IMG/VR virus record: IMGVR_UViG_3300047469_000094
Reading direction: 5' to 3' (one strand)
DNA from: a virus
Lineage: Duplodnaviria > Heunggongvirae > Uroviricota > Caudoviricetes
DNA: 64,000 nt
The stretch's first letter is position 1; each line of letters begins with the position of its first letter. Made by a program: the position numbers and the translations under genes. The notes under the pieces were generated by a model that was given only the letters and a program-made list of their open reading frames with translations, did not search any database and was not told the DNA's origin. Shown in pieces: positions 9,761-46,440 of the stretch.

Positions 9761-11560
9761 TTACGCTGCTTTCGGCAGACTTTCAGTCAGATTCGTACGA
9801 ACCGACACCAACGTTGCTTTGGATAGAACTTGGCTGTTCCGGTACGCACAGTTGAGAACACCGTAATAACCAACGGGTTTCCCTTCGACAGGGATGTACT
9901 CACCAGCCTCATCAAACTCTACGGCCAGCCAGCCTTTGGCAGAGTGCTTACCGGTGTCTGTTTTCGGTGCCTTGTAGACATCGATTTTCAGACCGTTGAC
10001 TTCCCCGTAAGTCAGCTTCATAGCAAAGCCCAGAGAGTCACGGGTGATGTGCTGGATGCTGTAGCTACCGACACCGACCACGATATTCTCTGCGGAGAAG
10101 CCCATTTCCATCAGACGCTGCAAGATAGCTTCGAAGCGTTGGATAGTAATGGAGTCACCGTAGATCAGGCGGATCTTCGGATTCAGCACTTTGTAGCCTT
10201 TGCTGTTCACGGTGCCGCCGAACAGTTCCCACAGCCACTGGATGCTGCCTTTCTCTTCCACGGTCAGGGTAGTAGGTTCGAACTTCGAAACCTTCTTGCC
10301 GTCCATGTAGTAGAACTGCTTGTCACGACGGTTCCACTCGATGTCCACGGTGTAGCGGTACAACTCACCGTTCCAGCGGGCAACGCCAGAAACTTCGGAA
10401 CGGCCAGGTTCGCCGTGTGCGGTTTCATCGTAGACCATCTCGGTTACATAGTCCTTGATCCAGCCTTTGGCATGGTCTTCGGTTTCAGCTTCGGAGCCGA
10501 TTTCGAAGACTTCAACCGTGCCGCAGATGATGTCCTTAGGGACGCCGCTGTCAGGCCGAACTACGAACGGACCCCCTTCACGAGCCAGGATCTTGTCTTT
10601 GAGCAGTGGCAGGCCGTGCTCCAACATACCGAAGTAGTCATAGCTGTCCATCACATAGCTGATAGGACCGACGTTGTCCAAGTAGTCAGAGAGGAAGCTT
10701 ACCTCTGCTTCGAACAAGGAGCAGCCACGCATCACAGCACGCATCTGAATGTTCAGAGTTGTCAGACTGTGTTCGGTAGCCATGATGGAACCGAAGTCAG
10801 CCTTGGTTGCGCCGTATTCGTGCATCGCAGCCAAGCAACCCGGGATGTTATCGGTGCCGGTAAACGCAGACAGCATCGAAGGACCAGTTTTGTAGCCCGC
10901 CCACATGCCAAACAGACCGCGAAGACTGAAGTCGTGGCACTGATACGTTACGTAGCCGTTATCGTCAGCCGTCAGTGCTGCGTACTTCTCTGCAACAATT
11001 CGGTACTCACGAGCAATAGTTGCTACGGTGCAGGCAGGCCACAGTTCGTTACTGAAGTGGTCTTCGGTGTAGCTTGCCAGCCATGCGAAGTCCTCATGGG
11101 TGTTGTCCACCAAGATGATCGGAGTACCCGCCCGTACTACGCGGCCTTCTTCGACTGCGTGAACCTGGATAGGCAGATAACCCAGTTTGTGCAGATCGGA
11201 GTAGATGGTGAGATCTGCGTTCGGAGTAGTTGCTTCTATCAGAGGGCGGATCACGCTCTCAACTTCTTCCCACGAAGCTTCAAAGAATTGGTTCCAGGCA
11301 TGGTTGATGGCATTCAGACCTTGGAGAACCCCCGCGACAACGATCTTACCGTCGTACTTAGAACTGCCTTGGAAGTGCTTGGTGCTACGTGGGGTGAAGT
11401 TACCCTGACCCTTCGTATAGCCTTTCGGGAACAGACCTGGGTGACAAAACTTGTACGCGTCACAGAGGATGGCTGCGTACATCGGAGCCGGAGGGGTTTG
11501 CATACGGGTGATTGCAGGGTATGCGGTGGAGCTTACTGGCGTAGGGATCTGCACTTGCAT
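9761..11560 (-). CDS. nadV: nicotinamide phosphoribosyltransferase (NAMPT/NadV family; could alternatively be a Namat-type enzyme of an NAD reconstitution pathway)
   Basis: 599-aa ORF with NAPRTase-family architecture (AILCDAYKF..., central catalytic region); AAGGAAG RBS. Confidence 0.88.
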   Translation of the reverse strand: MQVQIPTPVSSTAYPAITRMQTPPAPMYAAILCDAYKFCHPGLFPKGYTKGQGNFTPRSTKHFQGSSKYDGKIVVAGVLQGLNAINHAWNQFFEASWEEVESVIRPLIEATTPNADLTIYSDLHKLGYLPIQVHAVEEGRVVRAGTPIILVDNTHEDFAWLASYTEDHFSNELWPACTVATIAREYRIVAEKYAALTADDNGYVTYQCHDFSLRGLFGMWAGYKTGPSMLSAFTGTDNIPGCLAAMHEYGATKADFGSIMATEHSLTTLNIQMRAVMRGCSLFEAEVSFLSDYLDNVGPISYVMDSYDYFGMLEHGLPLLKDKILAREGGPFVVRPDSGVPKDIICGTVEVFEIGSEAETEDHAKGWIKDYVTEMVYDETAHGEPGRSEVSGVARWNGELYRYTVDIEWNRRDKQFYYMDGKKVSKFEPTTLTVEEKGSIQWLWELFGGTVNSKGYKVLNPKIRLIYGDSITIQRFEAILQRLMEMGFSAENIVVGVGSYSIQHITRDSLGFAMKLTYGEVNGLKIDVYKAPKTDTGKHSAKGWLAVEFDEAGEYIPVEGKPVGYYGVLNCAYRNSQVLSKATLVSVRTNLTESLPKAA

Positions 11561-11570
11561 GGATACTTCC

Positions 11571-12410
11571 TTAGTTGGTTTCGCGGGTTACGTTGAGTAC
11601 TTCCAGATTACCTGTGCCCTTGAGATGGCGAATGTAACTGTTAGTGGTGAAAACTTGGTCGTAGATATCGGAAACCACCGGAATCCCCTTTGAGAAAAGA
11701 CCGTGGGTCACTGCAAGGCTTACCGACGTTGCACCTTGGCTTTTCAGGGAGTGAAGCAATGGAACGAAAGTCCCGCAACCATCACCGATATCATCCAGAA
11801 CCAGAAGGGTACGACCTTCGACAGTATCGTTTACACGAGTACCCGAGATAATACCCGTTTCGAGGTCCCGTACTTTGGTGCAGTGAATTACCCCAGCCGC
11901 ACCTACACGTTTAGCGAACATTTCCGCCTTCTTCGCAGCACCGCCATCCGGGGCCGCAATGTAGACTTCTCGCCACGACGAATAGATGTCTTTGAAGATG
12001 TCGTACTGGTTGACAACTTCGAGGCGGTTGAACAGGGCCGGGGTCACTTCACTGTGAGGATCGAGGATCTTCACGTTGACGAAGTTGCAGGCGTTGATCA
12101 GTCGTGCAACGACGGCAATACTCAGAGGCTCACCTGGATTGCATACCCGATCCTGCCGAGCGTACGGCATGTACGGGATAAACGCGGAGATCGCTGCTCG
12201 GGGATACACACGACTAACAGCATCGTGGATCATGATCAGGTTCAGCAGATCACCCTGCGTTGTCAGCCTGGCCACGATCTCTACTTCCATCACTTTTTCA
12301 GGGTAGAGGTTGCCTGTCTGAATCTGTGGCACCACTTCCCCGCCTGGGAAATTGATGTAGCTGACTTCTTCAGTTACGTTGCCGAAACGCAGGTAGATAT
12401 TCTCTTTCAT
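11571..12410 (-). CDS. prs: ribose-phosphate pyrophosphokinase (PRPP synthetase, Prs) or Prs-like ADP-ribose pyrophosphokinase
   Basis: 279-aa ORF; PRPP-binding PRTase motif LLVLDDIGDGCGT and Prs N-terminal fold. Confidence 0.88.
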   Translation of the reverse strand: MKENIYLRFGNVTEEVSYINFPGGEVVPQIQTGNLYPEKVMEVEIVARLTTQGDLLNLIMIHDAVSRVYPRAAISAFIPYMPYARQDRVCNPGEPLSIAVVARLINACNFVNVKILDPHSEVTPALFNRLEVVNQYDIFKDIYSSWREVYIAAPDGGAAKKAEMFAKRVGAAGVIHCTKVRDLETGIISGTRVNDTVEGRTLLVLDDIGDGCGTFVPLLHSLKSQGATSVSLAVTHGLFSKGIPVVSDIYDQVFTTNSYIRHLKGTGNLEVLNVTRETN

Positions 12411-17008: not shown

Positions 17009-17035
17009 AAGAGGCCCTCGGGCCTCTTCTTATTT
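17009..17035. terminator. bidirectional rho-independent terminator
   Basis: GAGGCCC-TCG-GGCCTC hairpin with T-runs on both strands, sits between convergent genes. Confidence 0.55.
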
Positions 17036-17326
17036 TGTCTGTATCTTCAACAACAATTTCACGGGTCGATAGTACTTACTTGTAATTGCTCTTTCACGGA
17101 CAACCCTTTCTATTTCAAATTCATACGCCTTATCGTGCAGGAAGCTTCCGGTAGCGTCGTAGACGTTTTGCCCATCATCGTTATGCACCCTCAAAACGTC
17201 GTCGTTAAACGATAGTATCGAACGAATACCTTCGTCGTTTCTAGCATTTATCGTGTACGACAGCTTGGTTACATTCCCACCCGCCGCAACGAACCGAGTT
17301 AAGAACTCGTACATAGTAAATCTCAT
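17030..17326 (-). CDS. small protein, family with N-terminal (E/D)FLxR..GG motif (array 1)
   Basis: MRFTMYEFLTRFVAAGGNV...; tandem paralog. Confidence 0.55.
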   Translation of the reverse strand: MRFTMYEFLTRFVAAGGNVTKLSYTINARNDEGIRSILSFNDDVLRVHNDDGQNVYDATGSFLHDKAYEFEIERVVRERAITSKYYRPVKLLLKIQTK

Positions 17327-17649
17327 CGGTCGCCCCTATCGTATAGGCTAATAAGTACGGCTGCCTGGCGTATGAGCCTACGAGAGCCACCAAGAGGGTA
17401 GCTATCTATTGATACGTCGTATTGCATCCCGGAGAATGACCTGTCAGGGGTAATGGACCGGTTATCTCTCAGTACTACTGCTTTCAGGGTTCCATATTTA
17501 CGATGGTACGAAGTAATTTGTCTAACACCCGTCCCACCATTACTATTTGGAAACACGTAAAAAACGTTTGTTACATCACCACCTTTATCCAAAAACCTAT
17601 TCAAGAATTTCTGCATTGAAAACCTAGTTTCAATTGCGCGGTACTTCAT
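17323..17649 (-). CDS. small protein, same family (array 1)
   Basis: ...MQKFLNRFLDKGGDV...; probable true start at internal ATG about 17616. Confidence 0.55.
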   Translation of the reverse strand: MKYRAIETRFSMQKFLNRFLDKGGDVTNVFYVFPNSNGGTGVRQITSYHRKYGTLKAVVLRDNRSITPDRSFSGMQYDVSIDSYPLGGSRRLIRQAAVLISLYDRGDR

Positions 17650-19673: not shown

Positions 19674-19761
19674 TGGAGGCGGGTCAGGGATTCAAACCCT
19701 GGGGGCCGTTAGACCCGGCTGATTTCAAGTCAGCTACAATCGTTCACTCTGTCAACCCGCC
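19674..19761 (-). tRNA. tRNA-Ser (anticodon TGA), class II with long variable arm, CCA encoded
   Basis: Acceptor GGCGGGT/ACCCGCC, anticodon stem GCTGA/TCAGC loop CTTGAAA, 15-nt variable arm, T-arm CAGGG-TTTGAAT-CCCTG, T+CCA. Confidence 0.85.
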
Positions 19762-20151: not shown

Positions 20152-20248
20152 GTGAGTACCTTGATTGGTGGGCCGTAGGTGAATTGAACACCTATCCGAG
20201 ACTTATGAGGTCCACGCATTGAACCACTATGCTAACGGCCCGTAAAGC

Positions 20249-22249: not shown

Positions 22250-22335
22250 TGGCTCCGGGAGCTGGGGTCGAACCAGCAGTGTAATTAAACGCTTGGTTAA
22301 CAGCCAAGTGGGGTTGCCAATTTGCCTATCCCGGA
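22250..22335 (-). tRNA. tRNA-Asn (anticodon GTT)-like, CCA encoded, unusually long (14-nt) variable region and weak D-stem
   Basis: Acceptor TCCGGGA/TCCCGGA, anticodon stem CTTGG/CCAAG loop CTGTTAA, T-arm GCTGG-TTCGACC-CCAGC, G+CCA. Confidence 0.6.
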
Positions 22336-22340
22336 ATATA

Positions 22341-22422
22341 TGGTGGAGAGTAATGGAATCGAACCACTTCTACTTTCGAACAGCGTTTACAGCGCCGCGC
22401 ATTCCCAATCTGCCAACTCTCC
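22341..22422 (-). tRNA. tRNA-Tyr (anticodon GTA), class II, CCA encoded
   Basis: Acceptor GGAGAGT/ACTCTCC, anticodon stem CGGCG/CGCTG loop CTGTAAA, 12-nt variable arm, T-arm AGTGG-TTCGATT-CCATT, A+CCA. Confidence 0.8.
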
Positions 22423-22517
22423 GTAAAACAAAGCAAGAGAAACGTTCGTAGAGGTTTATATCTGTCTCCCTCTCGGATTTACTTCTCAGAGTCCGGCTTT
22501 CACTCTTGCCTTATAAC

Positions 22518-22602
22518 TGGTGCGGAAAGAGAGATTCAAACTCTCACGCCTTTCGGCAAAAGGACCTAAGCCTTTCGTGTCTGTCGATTCCACCATATCC
22601 GC
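22518..22602 (-). tRNA. tRNA-Leu (anticodon TAG), class II, CCA encoded
   Basis: Acceptor GCGGATA/TTTCCGC (one mismatch), anticodon stem AAAGG/CCTTT loop CTTAGGT, V-arm GCC-GAAA-GGC, T-arm GAGAG-TTTGAAT-CTCTC, A+CCA. Confidence 0.75.
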
Positions 22603-27360: not shown

Positions 27361-27777
27361 CTATTGCGTTGATACCACCCCGGACGGGACGGAAACGTAA
27401 GCACCTTCGGTAAGAATCTCAGAGATCATCTCTGGGATCAACTCCTTCAAGTTCTTGTCCATGCCGTACCAATGAGTGCAGTGAAGCAGTCGAAGACGGT
27501 TCAGAGTGTGCTTAGTGTCAACTGTGGATAACTTGAGGAAATCAACCGCCTCCGTTACCTCGCAAATACTGAAGAATGAACTGCGGAACATCTTGTCCAG
27601 CTTCATCTTCACTAGCGCAACGTCAAACGGGTCATGATCGTCGAGAAAAACTAAGCGGTCCACCGTGCTCTGCTTACGAGCAATAACTCGCGTACCGTAG
27701 GTAGAAACCTCTGTCTTAGGCTGTACAAACTTAGACAGAAAAGTCATCAAAGCACCCTTCTCTTGTAGCTCACTCAT
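27361..27777 (-). CDS. hypothetical protein (N-terminal MTFLSKF motif, family-like)
   Basis: 138-aa ORF. Confidence 0.5.
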   Translation of the reverse strand: MSELQEKGALMTFLSKFVQPKTEVSTYGTRVIARKQSTVDRLVFLDDHDPFDVALVKMKLDKMFRSSFFSICEVTEAVDFLKLSTVDTKHTLNRLRLLHCTHWYGMDKNLKELIPEMISEILTEGAYVSVPSGVVSTQ

Positions 27778-28304
27778 CTCATATTCCTCTTGTAATCACC
27801 ACGAACAGCGTCAACACCGTTGTACTCAACGAAGATCACTTCCTCGCCTTCCAGCTCTTCGTCGATGATTGCAGAAATGATCCGCCAGTCACCGCCAGCA
27901 CGAGCAGCTCCAATCGCAGGCACACCGAAGGACTTGCCTTGATTACCGTAGTCCGGCTTCAACTGCCTGAACACAGATCGCAACGCATCGTAGTCACAGA
28001 GAACACCCTTGCCGTACCAGTGGAACTGGGTATAGGCATTGATGATCGTACCTAAAAAGACTCCACGACGAACACCGTCTGAGTTTCGGAGATCCCGGTA
28101 GATATCTGCGTGGGTGTACGTCCCCAACTTCGTTTTGTCGAAACGAACCGTACGGCAATCCGCCTCGTAAGCTTCCGGGTATTTCTCCTTGATAGTCCTA
28201 GCAATGCCATCGCCCATGTTATTACCACAGTTACAACCGTGGACGATTACGTCGAAGTCACCTTCGCTGAAGCCTAGGATCAAATCGCCTTTAACGTGTT
28301 TCAT
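27774..28304 (-). CDS. macro-domain (ADP-ribose-binding/processing) protein
   Basis: IVHGCNCGNNMGDGIARTI and GVPAIGAARAGGDW blocks typical of MacroD/YmdB-type macro domains. Confidence 0.75.
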   Translation of the reverse strand: MKHVKGDLILGFSEGDFDVIVHGCNCGNNMGDGIARTIKEKYPEAYEADCRTVRFDKTKLGTYTHADIYRDLRNSDGVRRGVFLGTIINAYTQFHWYGKGVLCDYDALRSVFRQLKPDYGNQGKSFGVPAIGAARAGGDWRIISAIIDEELEGEEVIFVEYNGVDAVRGDYKRNMR

Positions 28305-28624: not shown

Positions 28625-28715
28625 AGCATTCTACCTAAACAATAGAGGTTCATTACTCCCCTTATACCCGTGTTTTTTAGGATACGTAAAAGAAAGGCCC
28701 TGACTGGGCCCGTTC

Positions 28716-29033
28716 TTATGTTTTGGAGATTAGTTCGATCCTTGCCTGCATGGCTCGGTCGATGAACTCCTCGTGGGTAAAGTCTGTGGTGAGAACGTGG
28801 AAGACCCAGTCCCAGTAGCCAGTGGTTGTATCTCCAGCCGCTACTGCCTCCGACCAAACCTTGCTGGTGATCACAGGATGCTCACTACGACCTAGGAGTT
28901 TGTACACACGAGAGATATTGCCCTCAGTACTATCCATGATCAGTAGTTGTTGCTGCAACTTCTTATCGTCTGGGACTAGAGCCAAGTCAGACAAGGCTAC
29001 GTACCGAAGAAGATCAATTACGTCTTTGCTCAT
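28716..29033 (-). CDS. hypothetical protein
   Basis: 105-aa ORF; preceded (minus sense) by terminator hairpin 28694-28712. Confidence 0.5.
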   Translation of the reverse strand: MSKDVIDLLRYVALSDLALVPDDKKLQQQLLIMDSTEGNISRVYKLLGRSEHPVITSKVWSEAVAAGDTTTGYWDWVFHVLTTDFTHEEFIDRAMQARIELISKT

Positions 29034-29035
29034 TA

Positions 29036-29290
29036 TCAGGCCTTTATTTGGAATAGTACTGTTCTACCAACCAAATGGCTACCATTCAGAAGGATACCTG
29101 TTATCTCGAAGATCCCTTTGTGGGCACGTATAGACAAATAGTCATCAGTCCTATCTGATAAACGATACGTCAATCGCTCTTCAGTTATTGAAGTGATTGG
29201 ATAATTTACGCTCATGTACCTGAAACTTATAGGAACGTCTAACGCCCTACCACCAAACCTATCCACCATCGTTGTTACGAAGTCCATCAA
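29036..29290 (-). CDS. small protein, paralog array 2 (7 tandem ~86-aa copies)
   Basis: MMDFVTTMVDRFGG...; paralogous to neighbours. Confidence 0.55.
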   Translation of the reverse strand: MMDFVTTMVDRFGGRALDVPISFRYMSVNYPITSITEERLTYRLSDRTDDYLSIRAHKGIFEITGILLNGSHLVGRTVLFQIKA

Positions 29291-29544
29291 CTGTTACCTC
29301 CGATATCAATCACGACACGTCGCTTAGATGGGAGGAAACGGCTACCCTCGGTGGTCACTGATCGAACTACGTAGTCAAATGTGCCAGAGGTTAACGACCC
29401 GGAGTCCCCATCGTCAGCCCTGTACTTAACCCGATCATCTTCAATTCCTATTACCCGATAGTACTTACGAGCATACTTGAAGTAAACACCACGAGGCATA
29501 CTCTGGTTCGAGAACAGTTTCACCATCATCGTTGCAAAGTACAT
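29287..29544 (-). CDS. small protein, paralog array 2
   Basis: C-terminal RRVVIDIGGNS shared with next copy. Confidence 0.55.
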   Translation of the reverse strand: MYFATMMVKLFSNQSMPRGVYFKYARKYYRVIGIEDDRVKYRADDGDSGSLTSGTFDYVVRSVTTEGSRFLPSKRRVVIDIGGNS

Positions 29545-29808
29545 TCATCCACTCCCTATATCTATAACGATTCTTCTTTTTCCATGGATCAAGCTGCTTC
29601 CACGGATGCGGACACCACGTATGTAGTACCTGTAGCTTGTCGCTTTTGCATACAACACTTCTACGTTGTAATCAGTCCGATACTTTATAAAGTCAGCACC
29701 TACTTCCTCTATGGGGTAACTCCTATCTCCATACTTGAAAGATAGCCCCTCAGGACTACCAAGGCCATCGAAAAGACGCACCAACGTGCTAACGAAGTCC
29801 ATACTCAT
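29545..29808 (-). CDS. small protein, paralog array 2
   Basis: MSMDFVSTLVRLFDGLG...RRIVIDIGSG. Confidence 0.55.
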   Translation of the reverse strand: MSMDFVSTLVRLFDGLGSPEGLSFKYGDRSYPIEEVGADFIKYRTDYNVEVLYAKATSYRYYIRGVRIRGSSLIHGKRRIVIDIGSG

Positions 29809-30065
29809 TTATACCTACAGTAGAGGTGGATGCGTCCACGTTCGAGAACTTTGTTAGAATTCTCTATCTTCACAGTTTGGATGTGCAGGTTCTTATAGGT
29901 GCCTTCATCCAAGACTCCTGTGCTGGAAGACCCAAGATGCCGGTACCGAATACCACCTGGAATTACCTCCGTGATTTGATAACTTACTCCGGCGAGGGAA
30001 AGCCAAAGATCGTTACCTACCGCCTTGCCAAGTAGGTGGCGCTTCAACGTTTCTATTAATCGCAT
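29805..30065 (-). CDS. small protein, paralog array 2
   Basis: ...RIHLYCRYK C-terminus. Confidence 0.55.
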   Translation of the reverse strand: MRLIETLKRHLLGKAVGNDLWLSLAGVSYQITEVIPGGIRYRHLGSSSTGVLDEGTYKNLHIQTVKIENSNKVLERGRIHLYCRYK

Positions 30066-30073
30066 AACACCTC

Positions 30074-30334
30074 CTAGCTATAGCGGCACTCAAAGTATAT
30101 ACGCGGTTTCTTTACTAACTTTTTAGCGGAAGAAATTTTGACCACCATAAGCCGCATGGAGGGGTTGCTCTCTACCGTTATGCACTCTTCCTGCATTCGT
30201 CCCCCTATCCGTAGATAGATCCCTTTGTCAGTAACCTTTGCTATTCGGTGGGTGCTACTACCCAGTGTCAGGAACGTATCTCGGGGAAGTACACGTCCAG
30301 AGAAACGCCGGATCATTTCACTTACAAACTGCAT
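30074..30334 (-). CDS. small protein, paralog array 2
   Basis: MQFVSEMIRRFSGR...RIYFECRYS. Confidence 0.55.
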   Translation of the reverse strand: MQFVSEMIRRFSGRVLPRDTFLTLGSSTHRIAKVTDKGIYLRIGGRMQEECITVESNPSMRLMVVKISSAKKLVKKPRIYFECRYS

Positions 30335-30346
30335 AACTCCCCCTAC

Positions 30347-30625
30347 TCAGTAATCAAACTGACAGTCGATGAAGTACTTAGGTGTGTTTACCAGCTTCCT
30401 CTCGGTCTCTACTGAGAAACCTTTAATATTCAGGTCGCTGTAGACATGAGGAGCCAGAAGGCTTCGACCTGTCTCATTAATATGCGTGTAATACACACCC
30501 TTGCTGTCTACGCCGACTATACGGTACGGCGTCTCTTTTATCCGGAGGTACAACTCCTTGGGAAGAGGTACACCTATTAGACGGTCAATCATTGTTTGAA
30601 CAAAGTTCATAACCCCTCCGCTCAT
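30347..30625 (-). CDS. small protein, paralog array 2
   Basis: ...NFVQTMIDRLIG...KYFIDCQFDY. Confidence 0.55.
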   Translation of the reverse strand: MSGGVMNFVQTMIDRLIGVPLPKELYLRIKETPYRIVGVDSKGVYYTHINETGRSLLAPHVYSDLNIKGFSVETERKLVNTPKYFIDCQFDY

Positions 30626-30891
30626 TCACTAGTAAACCGACAGTCAAAGACATATCGTTGTTTCTGGGTGACTTTCTTAGGCGGAGAGATGGTTACTCTC
30701 ACTATCGTTAGACTCCTTTCTTGACCCACCGTAAGGACGTTTACCGGAGACCCTTCTCGTTCCAAGGCATACCAGATACGATCCTTGCCTACTTGGAAAA
30801 TCCGATACGAGTTCTCATGAACCTTCATATAGGTTTCTTTGGGTAGCGGTACTAAATAGAAACGATCTACCAATGCCTGTACAAGTTGCAT
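30622..30891 (-). CDS. small protein, paralog array 2
   Basis: MQLVQALVDRFY...RYVFDCRFTSE. Confidence 0.55.
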   Translation of the reverse strand: MQLVQALVDRFYLVPLPKETYMKVHENSYRIFQVGKDRIWYALEREGSPVNVLTVGQERSLTIVRVTISPPKKVTQKQRYVFDCRFTSE

Positions 30892-30910
30892 CGTTCAATC
30901 CTCTTAAAAG

Positions 30911-30935
30911 AAAAAGGAGGCCTAAGCCTCCTCTT
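30911..30935 (-). terminator. rho-independent terminator
   Basis: GGAGGC-TTAG-GCCTCC hairpin + TTTTTC on minus strand right after DNA polymerase stop. Confidence 0.5.
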
Positions 30936-30937
30936 TG

Positions 30938-32602
30938 TTATGCAGCCATTGGGGCCCGTCCAAATTTGTCAACCATAAGTATTTCTACTTCTGGCTGAGT
31001 TATTCCTCGGTGGACGGTCGCCACTTGCTTCCAGTTGATACCAGCTTCAACGTCGATGCGGATAGGGAAATCCATCCACTCAAACGTTTCCACCAGCAAA
31101 TCCTCCATCACATAGAAAGCAGTGTTTATCGCCTCTGCCATCCGGTGATACGGGACCTCAATAGCCAGCGAGTCATACACCGTGGTAAGGACCTTTGCAC
31201 CCATTGGTTTAACGGCTTCGTTGAGCTTGGAGAAACCGTAAAGACCTGTAACGGCAGAGCTGCTCTGACAACGAACGTTCTGTGAGTTACGTAGGGCCGC
31301 GTTGTATACCGCAGTCTTGCGAAAGATATTCATTGCTCCGAATTCTTTCTTAGACTGACCGTACATATTCATGACGTAGTTATTAGCCTTCGCCATTGCG
31401 TGTGAATCGTTTACGTACACTTCGATCAACGGGAACTCTTTGAAGTACATCGCAATAAGGCGGGTAGCCTCTTGCTCAGTAATGTTCAGGGTATGAGCAA
31501 TGCCTCTGACGCTAGATCCGTAGAGGATTCCAAAAGTTAGAGATTTTGCCCCTTGACGCAGGGCTTTAAATCGTTTTTTAAGAGCCAGGATAGCGGGATC
31601 ACTACCCTCGTAGTTGACGTGGAAAACCATCTCATCGTAGTCCACCCCATGCATCTGAGATGCGGAGTACGAATGGAAATCCTTGCCTTCCGCAACCGCC
31701 CTTAACAATTTTGGATCTCGGCATAGGAATGCCAGCATAACTACTTCTGCACCTGACTGATCCAGGCACAGGAATAGATTCCCAGGATCTACGGTGTAGC
31801 ACTGCTTGATACTGTACCCTAACTTGTTTTCAGTCTGGGTGTTAGGAATCTGAGTCATATTCGGGAACTGACCAGACGGCCTGAACGACGAAGTACCAAA
31901 CAACGAATAGCTACTGTGAACCCTACCATCACTCTTGACGAAATCAGGGATATACGTCTTGAAAAAAGTATTGTACACAGAATTAACGTTGTTCCGTCGG
32001 GCTAAGACCTTCAACCAATCCAGGTTATGAGTCTCAGCTAAAGCACTTAACGCATCACCATCAACGCTCGGCTCGTTCTTCTTGGTGTAGCTAGGAGGCT
32101 CAAAACCAAGATCCCCATAGAGAATCTTTACCAGTTCTTTGCCACTATCCGGATTGAACTTCGACCCAAACAAGGTGAAGATCTCATCTTCAAGTCGTGG
32201 CAACTCCTCCTCAATCTGAGCACACTGCTTCCTATTAAGGTCGCAATCGTACTTAATCCCATTGATCTCCATGTCGATTAAGAACTCGTGAGCAGGCATT
32301 TCTACCTGCTCCATGAAGTCTAGGATGGCTGGGGCTGACCGAACTTCCTGAACCCCCTGCGTGTAGTACATATACGGTTTCCGCTCAACCACCTTGGGGA
32401 ATACTGCGTTCAGTACCCCCGTTGTCGCCAAGCAGTCAACACCAGCATACTGGTAGAGATCCTCCGGAGGGAAGTCCTCATACGTGTTGTATACCGGTGC
32501 TTCTTCTTTTACTGCGACAGACTTTCCCATCCGTTTGTCCTCGATGGCTCCCCTGAGGAGAACCCTATTTCTGTAAACTCTGCGTCGGGCGTAGTTATCC
32601 AC
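30938..32602 (-). CDS. family A DNA polymerase, polymerase-domain subunit (carries Exo III-like motif and pol motifs A, B, C)
   Basis: YAGVDCLAT (Exo III-like Yx3D), motif A DQSGAEVVMLAF, motif B RQGAKSLTFGILYGSS, motif C VYDSLAIEV. Confidence 0.88.
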   Translation of the reverse strand: MDNYARRRVYRNRVLLRGAIEDKRMGKSVAVKEEAPVYNTYEDFPPEDLYQYAGVDCLATTGVLNAVFPKVVERKPYMYYTQGVQEVRSAPAILDFMEQVEMPAHEFLIDMEINGIKYDCDLNRKQCAQIEEELPRLEDEIFTLFGSKFNPDSGKELVKILYGDLGFEPPSYTKKNEPSVDGDALSALAETHNLDWLKVLARRNNVNSVYNTFFKTYIPDFVKSDGRVHSSYSLFGTSSFRPSGQFPNMTQIPNTQTENKLGYSIKQCYTVDPGNLFLCLDQSGAEVVMLAFLCRDPKLLRAVAEGKDFHSYSASQMHGVDYDEMVFHVNYEGSDPAILALKKRFKALRQGAKSLTFGILYGSSVRGIAHTLNITEQEATRLIAMYFKEFPLIEVYVNDSHAMAKANNYVMNMYGQSKKEFGAMNIFRKTAVYNAALRNSQNVRCQSSSAVTGLYGFSKLNEAVKPMGAKVLTTVYDSLAIEVPYHRMAEAINTAFYVMEDLLVETFEWMDFPIRIDVEAGINWKQVATVHRGITQPEVEILMVDKFGRAPMAA

Positions 32603-36171: not shown

Positions 36172-37530
36172 TTATTCGTCGCATTCCCCCACCTCCTCTT
36201 CCTCGGACTCTTCTTCGCCTTCAACCACCTTCTTCCTCTTGGTCAGGGCAGGGAGCTTGTCTTCGTACCCGCCAAGACCACTCTCAGGTAAGAAGTCCCA
36301 GACAGCCTTCTTCAGACTGTAGTTGTTCTTCAACCCAGAGTTGATCGCGTGCAGTAACAGCAACGTATCGAACGCAGCGTTAACCACACGGACACCGGTA
36401 GTAACGAAGGTGTAAATGATATCGAACTTGATGTTGTGACCAACCTTAGGTCGTTGAGACAGAAGCAATTCTGCAATCAACGGCCAAGCTTCGTTTGAAT
36501 CGTAGAAGTTGTTGGCCCTGTGCCACAGAGGGAATACCAATGCCTTAATCACGCCATCCGCAGGGTCCGTGTATCCGAACTGAGCAGTGATGATCTTTGC
36601 GTTAGCCGCCCAGGCATCAAGGCTCGTCGTCTCCAAGTCGAAGCTGATGATCTTGTTCGCCGGAAGGTCGTTAAGGATCTTGATCATGGCTCTGACGTCA
36701 GTCATAGATCGAGCAATGGTGATCCGAGTTGAAGCTTCGGCCAGAGCATCGTCAAGACTTACTACCTTCAGGTCGCCACGAGCAATCCGTGCAGCCTTAG
36801 CGAAGTCACGATCAAGGACTTCGAAGTAGTCCGGACCCCATTCTTTACCTGAGGCATTCTGACGGATCATCGTCAAGGACTTAGGGTGGAGAGTGATCAC
36901 CGCAGTACCGTAGTCAGTCGTGTGGAATTCACCACGGTTAGACGAACAGGTGGCCTTGATACCCAGAGCACTGATCGAGTTCGTAGACATCACGATGATC
37001 GCCTTAGGCTTGATCCTGCGAAGTTCCTCGTGAAGGTAGGGAGTACATGGTTTGATCTTGGTGGTTGTCACGGTTTGACCCCGAAGGTCAGACGCTTGCG
37101 GCAAGCACTTAAGAGTACTGACTACGGCGTAGCTCAACCGTTGAAAATATTTCTGAGCCAGGAAGCCAATGATGTCCCGGTAGATACGCTCCATTTCATC
37201 AGAGGATTTGTACATCTGGGCTAAAGCGTTGTGGTCCTGAACTATGACGATATCGACCTGTTGAGTGGTCAAAGTCACTTGTTTAGGACGACGACTGGAT
37301 GGGCACAGACCACAGGCCGAGTTGCAGTACCGATCCTGGATCTTGGAGAAGTCTTCCTTCTCGATGATCTGCTTCCGGATCGAAGGCATCATCTTCCCGA
37401 TCTCGGCTGCCTTGGCGTACAGCTCGTCCAAGCTCAGCTCGTTCGTCTTCTTGGCTCTTGGTTTCTTAACTTTTCCGGATGGGGTGGCCGTATCTCCCAG
37501 GCCCCCGATCGGTTTGAAGTTAGTAGACAT
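36172..37530 (-). CDS. DNA polymerase N-terminal subunit: UDG-superfamily-like domain fused to 3'-5' exonuclease (Exo I and Exo II motifs)
   Basis: Exo I ISFDLETTSLD, Exo II HNIKFDIIY; upstream half has family-4-UDG-like blocks (KCLP, TLHPKS); acidic C-terminal tail; no Exo III in this ORF. Confidence 0.8.
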   Translation of the reverse strand: MSTNFKPIGGLGDTATPSGKVKKPRAKKTNELSLDELYAKAAEIGKMMPSIRKQIIEKEDFSKIQDRYCNSACGLCPSSRRPKQVTLTTQQVDIVIVQDHNALAQMYKSSDEMERIYRDIIGFLAQKYFQRLSYAVVSTLKCLPQASDLRGQTVTTTKIKPCTPYLHEELRRIKPKAIIVMSTNSISALGIKATCSSNRGEFHTTDYGTAVITLHPKSLTMIRQNASGKEWGPDYFEVLDRDFAKAARIARGDLKVVSLDDALAEASTRITIARSMTDVRAMIKILNDLPANKIISFDLETTSLDAWAANAKIITAQFGYTDPADGVIKALVFPLWHRANNFYDSNEAWPLIAELLLSQRPKVGHNIKFDIIYTFVTTGVRVVNAAFDTLLLLHAINSGLKNNYSLKKAVWDFLPESGLGGYEDKLPALTKRKKVVEGEEESEEEEVGECDE

Positions 37531-37578
37531 GGTGAAAACCTCTAAGTGTTATGGGGTGTTACATCATTGTTATACCAC

Positions 37579-37587
37579 ACATAGGTC
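37579..37587 (-). promoter_or_regulatory. extended -10-like promoter element (minus strand TGGTATAAC + AATGATG)
   Basis: ~45 nt upstream of start codon of 36172..37530. Confidence 0.4.
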
Positions 37588-37860
37588 GATGTGGGGAAGT
37601 CTGTTTTTTAGGAAACGATCTGTAAGGTCTCTTAGAGCCACGACTGGATCTAGGAGCTACCCTTGCCAGGGGTGAAGTTAGATCGTTGCTCAGATCGCAT
37701 CTCAGGAGCTCACAGTGCGTAGGAAGGGGTCTCAGGGTGATCGTAGGTATGGTCGTAGTAGAATACTGCGGCGAGGCCCTTCAAAGCACCTCTGAAACCA
37801 TTGATCTAGAGCCTGCGCGGAAAGAGGCCTTGATCTACGTGGCCTCCAGAGGCATGTCTA

Positions 37861-38520
37861 AGCCGTAGACAAACCATGTCTACGCTAAGAGGCCCGTGCT
37901 AGAGCCTTTAGACAAAATATTAGACATCTAGACAAAGTTTTGTCTAAGTCATGTCTACGGCTGCAGGCCGCGGCCCGTATGGCTTTGAGGGGTGCGCTAG
38001 ACATTTAGACATGAATTTTCTCCGCACAAGCACTAGGGCTCAGAAACCAGGAAATAAAAAACAAGAAATGGAGACAGTCATATACATACTATATATATTT
38101 ATATATTTATAACTATATATATGTACCCATGACATGGCTATGGCTGTTGTGTAAAGAATGTTGAACACGAGGTTGTAGAGTTGTTTTTTTATTTGTGTGT
38201 TTCCAAGCTCTGGGTGCTCGTGCGGAGAAAATTCATGTCTTTTTGTCTAAAAGAGGCTGAAAGCCACGGCCCGCCTGGGCTGCAGCCGTAGACATGACTT
38301 AGACATGAACTTTTGGAAATGTCTAAAACTTTGTCTAATCGCTCTAGGACGGGCCTCTCAGCGTAGACATGACTTTGTCTAGTTTTGTCTAAAAATGTCT
38401 AAAAGTAGAAAAGTCATGTCTTGATGTCTTAGATAATGAGAACGAATATCAACAAGTAGTCGTAACCCTGTTCGACATCTGACTCAGGGTGTTGAGAATA
38501 CTTTACACATTTAGACATGG
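37861..38520. repeat. iteron array (about 20 copies of TAGACAT / ATGTCTA-type 7-8-mers in both orientations) flanking an AT-rich core and a large imperfect palindrome; candidate origin of replication or centromere-like site
   Basis: ORF-poor 1.1-kb region; repeats gtagacaaaccatgtctac, tagacatctagacaaagttttgtctaagtcatgtctac and others; AT core atatacatactatatatatttatatatttataactatatatat; GC-rich inverted repeats at 37961-37983 and 38267-38291. Confidence 0.6.
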
Positions 38521-38638
38521 GCGGAGGGGATTGGATAGGATTGGACTATGACTGATCGTTGATCAATAGAAGATTGCTATTCTACTAGCTAAAAGAAAAG
38601 AGGACCGAAGTCCTCTCTCTTGACCCTGAGGTCAGTTC

Positions 38639-38836
38639 TTAACGAACGAATTCGCAGAACGAAGATTTTGCAATCTGAAGCATGTCGTTGTCAGAGTAGG
38701 AACGCTTGACTTGGCGAGCTTCCTCTCGGGTCAACATTGGGCCGAGGCGCACACGGAGTGTACCACGTTCAACCAGGAAGTACGAATTAACTCGTGGAGC
38801 AGGGGTAGTAACGGCGTTGGTACGAGGAGTAGTCAT
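38639..38836 (-). CDS. hypothetical small protein
   Basis: 65-aa ORF. Confidence 0.4.
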   Translation of the reverse strand: MTTPRTNAVTTPAPRVNSYFLVERGTLRVRLGPMLTREEARQVKRSYSDNDMLQIAKSSFCEFVR

Positions 38837-44512: not shown

Positions 44513-44839
44513 TTACGCACTCCCAACTCTGGTTGCAGTGATTAATGTTTTAATGCCACCATCATACCGCTTACGGGAGACGTTGACTACCTCCCAGTAA
44601 TTCCGTTGTATCGGCCACTTCTTAACATTATCATCCATGCCCAGGACAGTGTAGTAGTAGGTGTTGTCAAGGTTCCGGTCTTTACGGAAAAGCTCCCGTG
44701 GCCGCAGCTCGTTCCCGGTGTGGATAAGCTGCACCACGATCCCCTCAAGCCTCTTCTTGCGACCCATACTCCAAAGGTCTGTATCTAGAGAGAAGAGATA
44801 CTCTCTTAGATCAATCATCTTCATAGATGCTCTCCACAT
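44513..44839 (-). CDS. hypothetical protein
   Basis: 108-aa ORF. Confidence 0.5.
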   Translation of the reverse strand: MWRASMKMIDLREYLFSLDTDLWSMGRKKRLEGIVVQLIHTGNELRPRELFRKDRNLDNTYYYTVLGMDDNVKKWPIQRNYWEVVNVSRKRYDGGIKTLITATRVGSA

Positions 44840-45164
44840 TTACCAGTATTTCATGACCGTTTGGGGAGTAGAACGGATCGTAGGGGTGAACCAGGTTGAA
44901 CATCTTCGACACGTTCGTCACTGAGAGGTTATCGTTCTCCTCCCTTTTGAAACACCAACAATTTGGCTCACCCTGTTCACCCCTGGCAGGGTAGAACACA
45001 TAGCTGAAAGTAGAGTCGCCAAGATACTTGAGAACCCTGATGCTTGCACCTTGGTTGAATCTAATGAAGAGGGTACGTACCGGGTCACCCGCTTCCAAGC
45101 CCAAGCGGTTGATAAGAGTAGTGAAGTAATTCTCGTTATCTACAAATCCACTAGGATTAGACAT
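44811..45164 (-). CDS. small protein, paralog array 3 (N-terminal ...TLINRLGL motif)
   Basis: 117-aa ORF; shares motif with next copies. Confidence 0.5.
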   Translation of the reverse strand: MSNPSGFVDNENYFTTLINRLGLEAGDPVRTLFIRFNQGASIRVLKYLGDSTFSYVFYPARGEQGEPNCWCFKREENDNLSVTNVSKMFNLVHPYDPFYSPNGHEILVNVESIYEDD

Positions 45165-45469
45165 CAGCCATCCTCCAGATTTATGTGTAGACTGCCACGG
45201 CCTCCTAGAACTCCAGGCGTCTCCTTTTTACGCCTAATACTTGCAACTCTGTAACGACGAGTACTACCTCCGTTGGAGTACCACTTATTTACCCTGTCAC
45301 CATGGACAGGGATGAATCGGTACTCAAACTGCTCATTCCCCAGGAACTTGAGAAGTTGTATTACAGTATCGCCATTGAACTGTACAAAGACCTTTTCGAT
45401 CTTTGGGTCCTCGGCAAGTCCAAGCTTATCAACTAGGCGACGGAAAAACTCCTGAACGTTGATACTCAT
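45164..45469 (-). CDS. small protein, paralog array 3
   Basis: MSINVQEFFRRLVDKLGL... Confidence 0.55.
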   Translation of the reverse strand: MSINVQEFFRRLVDKLGLAEDPKIEKVFVQFNGDTVIQLLKFLGNEQFEYRFIPVHGDRVNKWYSNGGSTRRYRVASIRRKKETPGVLGGRGSLHINLEDG

Positions 45470-45798
45470 AGTTCCTCCACAATTTTCTCGACGTAGATCA
45501 CTGCCTTGTTAATAGGACGTACGAGGCTGGACATCGGCTTTATATGGCTCTTGTTAACTCGTTGTTCTTCGATCCGGGATATCACGTACTTAGCCCCCAC
45601 CATTGTGTGAGGTGTCCATGATTTTGATGGGCCTTTTGTACCTGACCCATACGCGTATAGGATACGTCCGTCGTCACCAACTTCGCGTATGTTTATCTCC
45701 GTACCATTGGACTTAAACACAACTTTGATAAGACTAATGTTTGAGGGGCTTGTTATCTTCTTAGTAAGACGACGAAGGAACTCGGTTATATCAATCAC
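45466..45798 (-). CDS. small protein, paralog array 3
   Basis: MIDITEFLRRLTKK... Confidence 0.55.
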   Translation of the reverse strand: MIDITEFLRRLTKKITSPSNISLIKVVFKSNGTEINIREVGDDGRILYAYGSGTKGPSKSWTPHTMVGAKYVISRIEEQRVNKSHIKPMSSLVRPINKAVIYVEKIVEEL

Positions 45799-45811
45799 AG
45801 CTTTTTACTCC

Positions 45812-46120
45812 TTACTTCCGAAAGACTTTTGAAGTGTGTATCCGAACTCCTCCAGGTCGATAACCCAGTATGCTGGTATCTTGGTTTAGAGTTACTTCGG
45901 ATACCCGGTCAATCCTATAGCGGTAGTAGGAAGCTCCTCCAGGGTGCCATGCATAGGTAGTTGTACCTGTGCTAAACCGGTAATCGATGGAGTTACCGTT
46001 TAGTTTGGTAACAATCAAATCATATGCGCCTTCATCTAGCTCCAGGTGTATCCTGCCAAACTCCTTGTAGTCAGGGAACTTTTTGACTAACTGTTCTAGA
46101 AACGTCATTAACTCGATCAT
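45812..46120 (-). CDS. small protein, paralog array 3
   Basis: MIELMTFLEQLVKKFPDYKEFGRIHLEL... Confidence 0.55.
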   Translation of the reverse strand: MIELMTFLEQLVKKFPDYKEFGRIHLELDEGAYDLIVTKLNGNSIDYRFSTGTTTYAWHPGGASYYRYRIDRVSEVTLNQDTSILGYRPGGVRIHTSKVFRK

Positions 46121-46440
46121 GATATTCCCGTATACTTACCGAAGTGTTTAGAGGTGCTTACTCGTACGCCTTGACGTTGTACGCCTAGTAGCGGTGTGTC
46201 CTTGCTAAGAAATACCTGAGAGACGTCGTTTACCATGTACCGAAAGAAGCTCATTTTTCTAGGGCGGAATTCGAAAAGAGTCTTAGCTCCATGAAAGTGA
46301 TAGTAGATGACATCGTCCTTGATACTGTCCAAGATCAGCGCATAAGAGTTGTTGTCTAGTTCTAGTTGTATCCGGTTGAACTCCTTGTAGTCCGGGAATC
46401 GTTTCATTAGTTGTTCTAGAAATGCTATTAACTCGATCAT
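46117..46440 (-). CDS. small protein, paralog array 3 (recent duplicate of previous)
   Basis: MIELIAFLEQLMKRFPDYKEFNRIQLEL... nearly identical N-terminus to 45812..46120. Confidence 0.55.
   Translation of the reverse strand: MIELIAFLEQLMKRFPDYKEFNRIQLELDNNSYALILDSIKDDVIYYHFHGAKTLFEFRPRKMSFFRYMVNDVSQVFLSKDTPLLGVQRQGVRVSTSKHFGKYTGIS

Follow-up and report, generated by a model that had tools for sequence, protein, structure and literature searches.

The minus strand between positions 29036 and 30891 of a 64,000-nucleotide (nt) stretch of the Caudoviricetes record IMGVR_UViG_3300047469_000094, the whole of which is called the window here, is wholly occupied by seven contiguous open reading frames (ORFs) of 83 to 89 amino acids (aa), numbered c1 to c7 from the upstream end. 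An earlier note, made from the sequence alone, had described them as one diverging gene copied seven times, with related N- and C-termini, immediately downstream of a DNA polymerase gene. That neighbor (30938–32602, minus strand; stop codon 30938–30940) encodes a family-A DNA polymerase, PolA (Pfam, 9e-57), and the array does lie directly behind it, 46 nt away, with a conserved terminator-like hairpin in the spacer. On the other side, a conserved 105-aa gene (28716–29033, minus strand) closes the unit in every related locus and forms the downstream anchor of a variable slot. Its product is 78 to 89% identical in seven loci, with a ratio of nonsynonymous to synonymous substitution rates (dN/dS) of 0.11 to 0.18, and matches only phrog_11556, a PHROG without assigned function.

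C-terminal signatures split the family into an A-type (D/E-C-R-F/Y) and a B-type (V-I-D-I-G). Four copies, all on the minus strand like the rest, are A-type: c1 (30622–30891; 89 aa; C-terminus YVFDCRFTSE; orthogroup 1; Shine–Dalgarno sequence AAGAGGA), c2 (30347–30610; 87 aa from the ATG at 30610; YFIDCQFDY), c3 (30074–30334; 86 aa; IYFECRYS; net charge +9.6) and c4 (29805–30065; 86 aa; IHLYCRYK). The B-type copies are c5 (29545–29802; 85 aa from the ATG at 29802; RRIVIDIGSG), c6 (29287–29544; 85 aa; RRVVIDIGGNS) and the divergent c7 (29036–29287; 83 aa from the ATG at 29287; VLFQIKA). Start codons were picked from the positions of Shine–Dalgarno sequences and from orthologs, which revised the likely starts of c2, c5 and c7 to those given. 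The c2 frame can be extended to 30625, but GGAGGGG precedes the ATG of MNFV at 30610, and this is where gene callers place the start in three related loci (L001, L002 and L004); for c5, the upstream ATG is absent from the related locus L005. A purine-rich ribosome-binding site precedes every copy, that of c5 being weak, and spacing within the array runs from a 1-nt overlap, as between the c7 ATG and the c6 stop codon, up to 12 nt.

Formal comparison bears out the homology of all seven copies. BLASTP links the A-type copies (c1–c2, 8e-13; c1–c3, 4e-10; c3–c4, 6e-10) and the B-type copies (c5–c6, 1e-12; c5–c7, 5e-8), and the two subgroups join in a profile–profile alignment (c1–c4 versus c5–c7, hhalign, 99.2% probability, E = 8e-20). 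Hidden Markov model (HMM) scores across the subgroups are 23 to 53 bits, whereas none of 3,200 shuffled sequences scored above 8.6 bits. The similarity is thus significant by each of these routes, and the absence of it, which the earlier note had named as the outcome that would count against its reading, was not what we found. When all ORFs of the window were scanned with the family HMM, exactly seven members were recovered, all in the array, along with one weak match in a second array described below. Identity among the seven proteins is 18 to 36%, and homology extends over the full length, beyond the shared N-terminal motif, MxFVxTMVxRF; the C-termini are likewise related, as predicted, and also delimit the two types. 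At the DNA level, repeats occur within the array only where c5, c6 and c7 have their 5′ ends, as stretches of 24 nt spaced by 257/258 nt and 79 to 83% identical; they could supply microhomology for unequal crossing-over.

The earlier note had proposed comparing copy number across related genomes. We retrieved related loci via their encoded proteins and defined the slot as the interval from PolA to the 105-aa gene; it holds between 3 and 8 copies. There are 3 in L012, 4 in L006 and L007, at least 4 in L013 and L014, 5 in L010, and 7 in the window, L001, L003, L004 and L005. L002 has 8, the eighth with a GTG start that the gene caller overlooked. A neighbor-joining tree resolves about nine orthogroups, which give the array orders 1-2-3-4-5-6-7, 1-2-3-4-5-6-6′-7, 1-4′-8-9, 1′-1-4′-8-9, 2-6-6 and 1-2-2′-6. 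The order of orthogroups is colinear in all arrays, with A-types always ahead of B-types. On a more distant contig, L011, four members detected by the HMM lie among consecutive small genes, and the polymerase gene is absent from the 12 kb of it that were examined.

In all complete arrays examined, one or more A-type copies come first and one or more B-type copies follow. This conserved order would be expected if A-type and B-type protomers formed a hetero-oligomer, for example a ring or filament working with the polymerase, and the tight packing of the genes (spacers of 0 to 12 nt, overlapping stop and start codons) would suit coupled synthesis in stoichiometric amounts. Both the total number of copies and the A:B ratio (1:2, 2:2, 3:2, 4:3 and 4:4) nevertheless vary among close relatives, orthogroups are gained and lost one by one, and the predicted structure has no Sm/Hfq-like or clamp-like match, so such an assembly appears unlikely. 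The specific case of an Sm-like heteroheptamer, which seven paralogs bring to mind and whose protomers would have an N-terminal helix with a strongly bent sheet of five strands, was set aside on the negative structure search and the varying copy number.

A near-identical relative shows how the slot may be remodeled. L002 is about 100% identical to the window over 12 kb, save for three sharply bounded patches of 57 to 90% identity (window coordinates 32440–30938, 29590–28800 and 27450–27030). The first corresponds to the body of the PolA gene. The second takes in the 105-aa gene, c7 and the 3′ half of c6, where it places a recombination breakpoint, and carries the 261-nt extra copy; the third is a small ORF near 27.1 to 27.4 kb. 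Read from the alignment, these patches show cassette exchange by recombination between co-circulating relatives, and the mosaicism indicates that recombination with more distant relatives was recent.

All seven copies have positional orthologs in L005, a relative whose PolA gene is about 70% identical at the nucleotide level. Amino acid identities for c1 to c7 in this pair are 65, 39, 72, 65, 65, 59 and 58%, c2 being the fastest-evolving copy with just 39%. The dN/dS analysis that the earlier note had also proposed, run on these orthologs by the Nei–Gojobori method, gave 0.16 to 0.32 for the copies and 0.09 to 0.18 for flanking genes; the ratios are approximate, as dS is near or above 1 in the L005 pairs. 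By copy, the values are 0.17 for c3, 0.27 for c4 and 0.24 for c5 against L005; 0.15 to 0.16 for c1, including the L006 ortholog (76% identity); 0.26 to 0.30 for c6, including the L002 ortholog (80%); and 0.32 to 0.41 for c7, including the L002 ortholog (59%). The less diverged pairs (c1, c6 and c7 against L002) are consistent, at 0.22 to 0.41. Because every copy has its counterpart in L005, the duplications predate the divergence of the two lineages. By these estimates, the array consists of seven separately maintained genes under purifying selection, rather than of a recent amplification, and the copies evolve somewhat faster than neighboring genes.

The same data bear on whether the ORFs are genes at all. 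Database annotations go no further than "hypothetical protein," one copy in L003 is split by the gene caller, and a copy in a short soil metagenome contig (L017, 343–522) matches only HMM positions 25 to 83 and lacks the N-terminal helix, through either decay or an artifact of assembly or frameshift. That the array consists of chance ORFs or decaying remnants of duplication is scarcely credible, however: four diverged lineages keep all seven frames unbroken, and dN/dS lies well below 1, which effectively refutes it. Each copy also has its own ribosome-binding site, the structural model is confident and the underlying L003 sequence is intact.

Poxvirus K3L is an example of a gene-amplification accordion in a virus–host arms race. 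Srikant et al. 2022 (PMC9391042) describe amplification of T4 tifA against toxIN. Such accordions resemble the array in that a small accessory gene changes its tandem copy number at one locus, driven by recombination. Accordions, however, are recent, and their near-identical copies collapse again, whereas the copies here share 18 to 36% identity, have their own orthogroups and are under purifying selection. A recent accordion would require near-identical copies and repeats at the DNA level, and was rejected, the only such repeats being those of 24 nt in c5 to c7. Judged by homology, orthogroups, gains and losses, and selection together, this is a tandem multigene family evolving by birth and death, and the array is a settled one in which birth and death are slow.

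The family has a narrow distribution. When 1.84 billion cluster representatives were searched exhaustively with the HMM, 29 matches reached E ≤ 1e-3. The long ones (P0021, P0030 and P0035; 657–4422 aa) match many unrelated Pfam families weakly and were discarded as repeat or compositional false positives. About 26 true relatives remain, of 35 to 91 aa (one of them a 35-aa fragment), and those with retrieved contigs sit in arrays like that of c1 to c7; a repeat search with a 41-sequence profile found no members beyond the loci already known. Metagenome contigs of about 165 kb in the JGI and Logan collections encode family proteins, all annotated as hypothetical; a scan of JGI metagenomes contributed only two short contigs. 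Among 50,697 GenBank phage records, there was neither a nucleotide match to the window nor a tblastn match to c1 or c6, and relatives of the 105-aa gene were absent from IMG/VR and GTDB genomes. Searches of all seven proteins against Pfam-A, PHROGs v4, NCBIfam and PADLOC gave nothing below E = 0.036, with no curated cut-off reached, and the best match of the family profile to sequences in the Protein Data Bank (PDB) had an E value of 0.67. The nearest isolates by PolA are the orphan Salmonella phage Arash (42%) and the Vibrio phages D69, D181 and D148 (38%). Within 14 kb around PolA in Arash and Vibrio D69, there are no family members, and the paper on Arash holds nothing relevant to the family. 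As far as these collections reach, the family is confined to this uncultivated phage clade; as an orphan family it is new, and its small fold may be new as well.

Two hairpins bracket the array and the 105-aa gene. T1 (30906–30936, minus strand), between the PolA stop codon and c1, has the form GGAGGC-ttag-GCCTCC followed by TTTTTCTTTT; its predicted RNA fold (−16.9 kcal/mol, z = −2.5) resembles an intrinsic terminator, and it is nearly invariant in L002, L005, L006, L010 and L012 despite an identity of only about 70% in the flanking genes. T2 (28686–28711, minus strand), after the 105-aa gene, is also intrinsic terminator-like (−14.3 kcal/mol, z = −4.2) and is conserved, its stem showing compensatory changes in L006, L012 and L013. 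Since T1 and T2 enclose the genes and the distance from T1 to c1 leaves too little room for a promoter, the array and the 105-aa gene appear to form a single unit, with transcripts of the polymerase gene reading through T1 into it. A possible internal promoter before c5 (CGTATC-N13-GGTATAA, 29809–29834) was dismissed, as it merely reflects CRYK/CRYN codons of c4. Directly after T2 lies a 28-nt box, TACGTATCCTAAAAAACACGGGTATAAG (28661–28688, minus strand), which occurs once in the window and is kept in L002, L005, L006, L010, L012 and L013 better than nearby genes. The box resembles a promoter, probably that of the next unit, which is composed of a second 105-aa gene and then a macro-domain gene.

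An AlphaFold2 model of c1, computed from a 13-sequence alignment, is compact and confident (predicted local distance difference test score, pLDDT, 88.8; predicted TM-score, pTM, 0.77). It comprises a helix at residues 3 to 11 followed by six strands, and residues 1 to 20 score 91 to 92; the N-terminal helix is predicted to be amphipathic and packed on the six β-strands. Foldseek returned no viral model at E ≤ 1e-3 and no close neighbor in the PDB. The best neighbors there, all weak, are SH3, Tudor, KOW and PRC-barrel domains, and small β-barrels of this general kind (SH3-like, Tudor including the helix-capped Tudor of Sds3, KOW, the RimM PRC barrel and PipX) have a similar size and strand-rich architecture. 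Across 45 members, conservation is found at hydrophobic core positions, one glycine and one proline, with no conserved polar or catalytic residue. In the model, these features describe a nonenzymatic binding domain with a variable surface. The proteins are mostly basic: the median isoelectric point (pI) of the family is 9.5, above the 8.1 of the window's other small ORFs (p = 7e-4), and 78% of members exceed 9. DNA-mimic antirestriction proteins such as Ocr, ArdA and Arn were excluded on this ground, as a strongly acidic, DNA-like surface would be expected of them.

The charge of the family, with +9.6 on c3 as an example, raises the possibility that the copies are nucleic acid-binding accessory proteins of the replication or transcription module, small basic β-barrels that coat, bend or recognize DNA or RNA (an origin, single-stranded DNA or a transcript, for example), with paralogs differing in sequence or structure preference. 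Many of the weak structural neighbors bind nucleic acids or RNA polymerase, and the array lies within the replication module, right after PolA, with which it is probably cotranscribed. We nevertheless consider this possible rather than probable. The family has no conserved basic residue, two of the seven proteins are near neutral, and the pI falls as low as 5.3. Three to eight copies and fast divergence are atypical of core replication factors; moreover, members are missing around PolA in Arash and D69 and from the GenBank phage records, and those of L011 occur without a polymerase gene on the stretch examined.

Several diverged small proteins are also kept by phage T4, whose Ip1 to Ip3 come from variable loci, share just an N-terminal leader, and each inhibit a different variant of GmrSD, a single family of host defenses (PMC12373910). 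The array is similar in comprising several small proteins with a conserved N-terminal segment at a variable phage locus, and by analogy the T4 Ip proteins offer the best functional model for a phage that keeps many diverged small paralogs. The likeness could go further, the copies being packaged internal proteins whose N-terminal helix is a capsid-targeting signal common to otherwise divergent cargo and which are injected with the DNA to work from the first moments of infection. Small and mostly basic proteins suit this, as does the N-terminal segment of about 12 residues, which is the best conserved of the family and is preserved even at the DNA level in c5 to c7; the second array has a similar helix. 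In the T4 proteins, however, only the leader is shared, whereas here the whole 85-aa domain is homologous. The AlphaFold2 model makes the helix an integral, high-confidence part of the fold, and its conserved positions 3, 4, 7, 8 and 11 form a hydrophobic face, which we read as packing on the sheet. There is also no PHROG match to Ip, no conserved protease-cleavage motif (such as L/I-x-E) after the helix, and the genes lie in the replication module, away from head genes. Packaging is therefore improbable.

The neighborhood of the slot offers a further line of evidence. In three relatives (L012, 1320–1511; L013, about 1082–1273; L014, 1020–1211), a gene for a 63-aa stand-alone Xre/MbcA/ParS toxin-binding antitoxin domain (Pfam PF09722; 2.7e-11 in L012, 3.8e-10 in L014) separates the last copy from the 105-aa gene; it is absent from the window. 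Two genes downstream, a macro-domain gene (27774–28304, minus strand; 176 aa) matches DarG in PADLOC (2.4e-10) and phrog_335 (1e-47), and its product could reverse ADP-ribosylation, for example to counter a DarT-type defense. Anti-defense islands are clusters of counter-defense genes, among them anti-CRISPR loci, NARP and genes of macro-domain or antitoxin-like type. The locus shares with such islands a variable accessory slot between conserved genes, an MbcA/ParS domain within the slot of relatives and a DarG-like macro domain nearby, as well as NARP2-like NAD salvage genes elsewhere in the window; it differs in that none of the seven proteins matches a known anti-defense family, and the link is one of position only.

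We favor the view, at a probability of roughly 40%, that the paralogs are diversified nonenzymatic binders for host interaction or counter-defense. On this proposal, a conserved hydrophobic core would leave the surfaces free to vary, and each paralog would recognize a different variant of a host or nucleic acid-associated target, most plausibly as a factor of host takeover or counter-defense. Read-through of T1 would yield the copies along with the 105-aa protein, in the replication (early or middle) phase. The counter-defense role is suggested by the turnover of copies and exchange of cassettes in a fixed slot, the restriction of the family to one phage clade, the variable surface on a conserved scaffold, the antitoxin-domain cargo and DarG-like neighbor, and the precedent of T4 Ip1 to Ip3. 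Several points weigh against it. Pfam, PHROGs, NCBIfam and PADLOC hold no match to a characterized anti-defense or host-takeover protein, and the argument from association leans on only two neighbors. Stable orthogroups, purifying selection and the lack of near-identical duplicates point to settled rather than arms-race functions, the basic charge and small β-rich fold would fit nucleic acid-binding housekeeping equally well, and the constant co-presence of A- and B-types hints at a complex rather than independent binders.

The window contains a second tandem array (44513–46440, minus strand) of six ORFs of 101 to 117 aa. BLAST links two pairs of these ORFs, and their homologs are likewise confined to this phage group. 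Aligned with the family of c1 to c7 by hhalign, the second array gives 87% probability (E = 3.9e-6 over 88 columns), and in an AlphaFold2 model from it (pLDDT 73) a single N-terminal helix likewise precedes six strands. Because the profile match and the order of secondary structure agree, both arrays probably belong to one superfamily with 13 members in the window. A bolder and rather doubtful extension is that these 13 genes represent an unrecognized superfamily and fold of specific phage inhibitors, each paralog directed at a different variant of a polymorphic host immunity protein. They would form a compact, evolvable antidote library following the logic of T4 Ip1 to Ip3 on a single scaffold, with the A- and B-types as obligatory partners or as two classes by target.

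Other features of the window surround these genes. Its replication and nucleotide module includes a primase, helicases, PhoH, a PD-(D/E)XK nuclease, a protein with uracil-DNA glycosylase (UDG)-like and exonuclease parts, and a NAPRTase-family protein beside a Prs-like one. The polymerase is split: the polymerase domain (30938–32602) and the UDG-like plus 3′–5′ exonuclease protein (36172–37530, minus strand) lie about 3.5 kb and six ORFs apart, and in Arash and Vibrio D69 the polymerase part is itself interrupted by small ORFs. Upstream of the exonuclease gene, where the cumulative GC skew turns, an ORF-poor stretch of about 1.1 kb (37530–38640; core 37875–38520) is dense in TAGACAT/ATGTCTA in both orientations. 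This stretch also has two ACTATATATAT boxes and an inverted repeat of 95 nt (84% complementary), and may be a replication origin or a cluster of operators. At 9761–12410 (minus strand), the NAPRTase-family protein (599 aa) adjoins a ribose-phosphate pyrophosphokinase-like protein (279 aa), a pair that, from domain matches only, resembles the NARP2 pathway of NAD+ reconstitution used by phages against NAD-depleting defenses. All-against-all BLAST also identified adjacent small paralogous ORFs at 17030–17326 and 17323–17649 (minus strand; 98 and 108 aa). Six tRNA genes on the minus strand (Gly, Ser, Met, Asn, Tyr and Leu) lie at 5999–6072, 19674–19761, 20166–20241 and 22250–22602, three of them clustered at 22.25 to 22.6 kb.

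Few of the many small orphan genes in large phages have a known function. Tandem birth and death is a pattern already known, and the array adds incrementally to what has been described of phage genome plasticity rather than establishing a new principle. The orphan family does offer a natural experiment, with defined orthogroups, 3 to 8 copies in a fixed slot, cassette replacement documented in near-identical genomes and a confident structural model without known relatives. Should its members turn out to inhibit host defenses specifically, they would provide a single scaffold on which each change of surface could be translated directly into a change of target; should they bind nucleic acids instead, the family would make up a new class of small DNA- or RNA-binding phage proteins.

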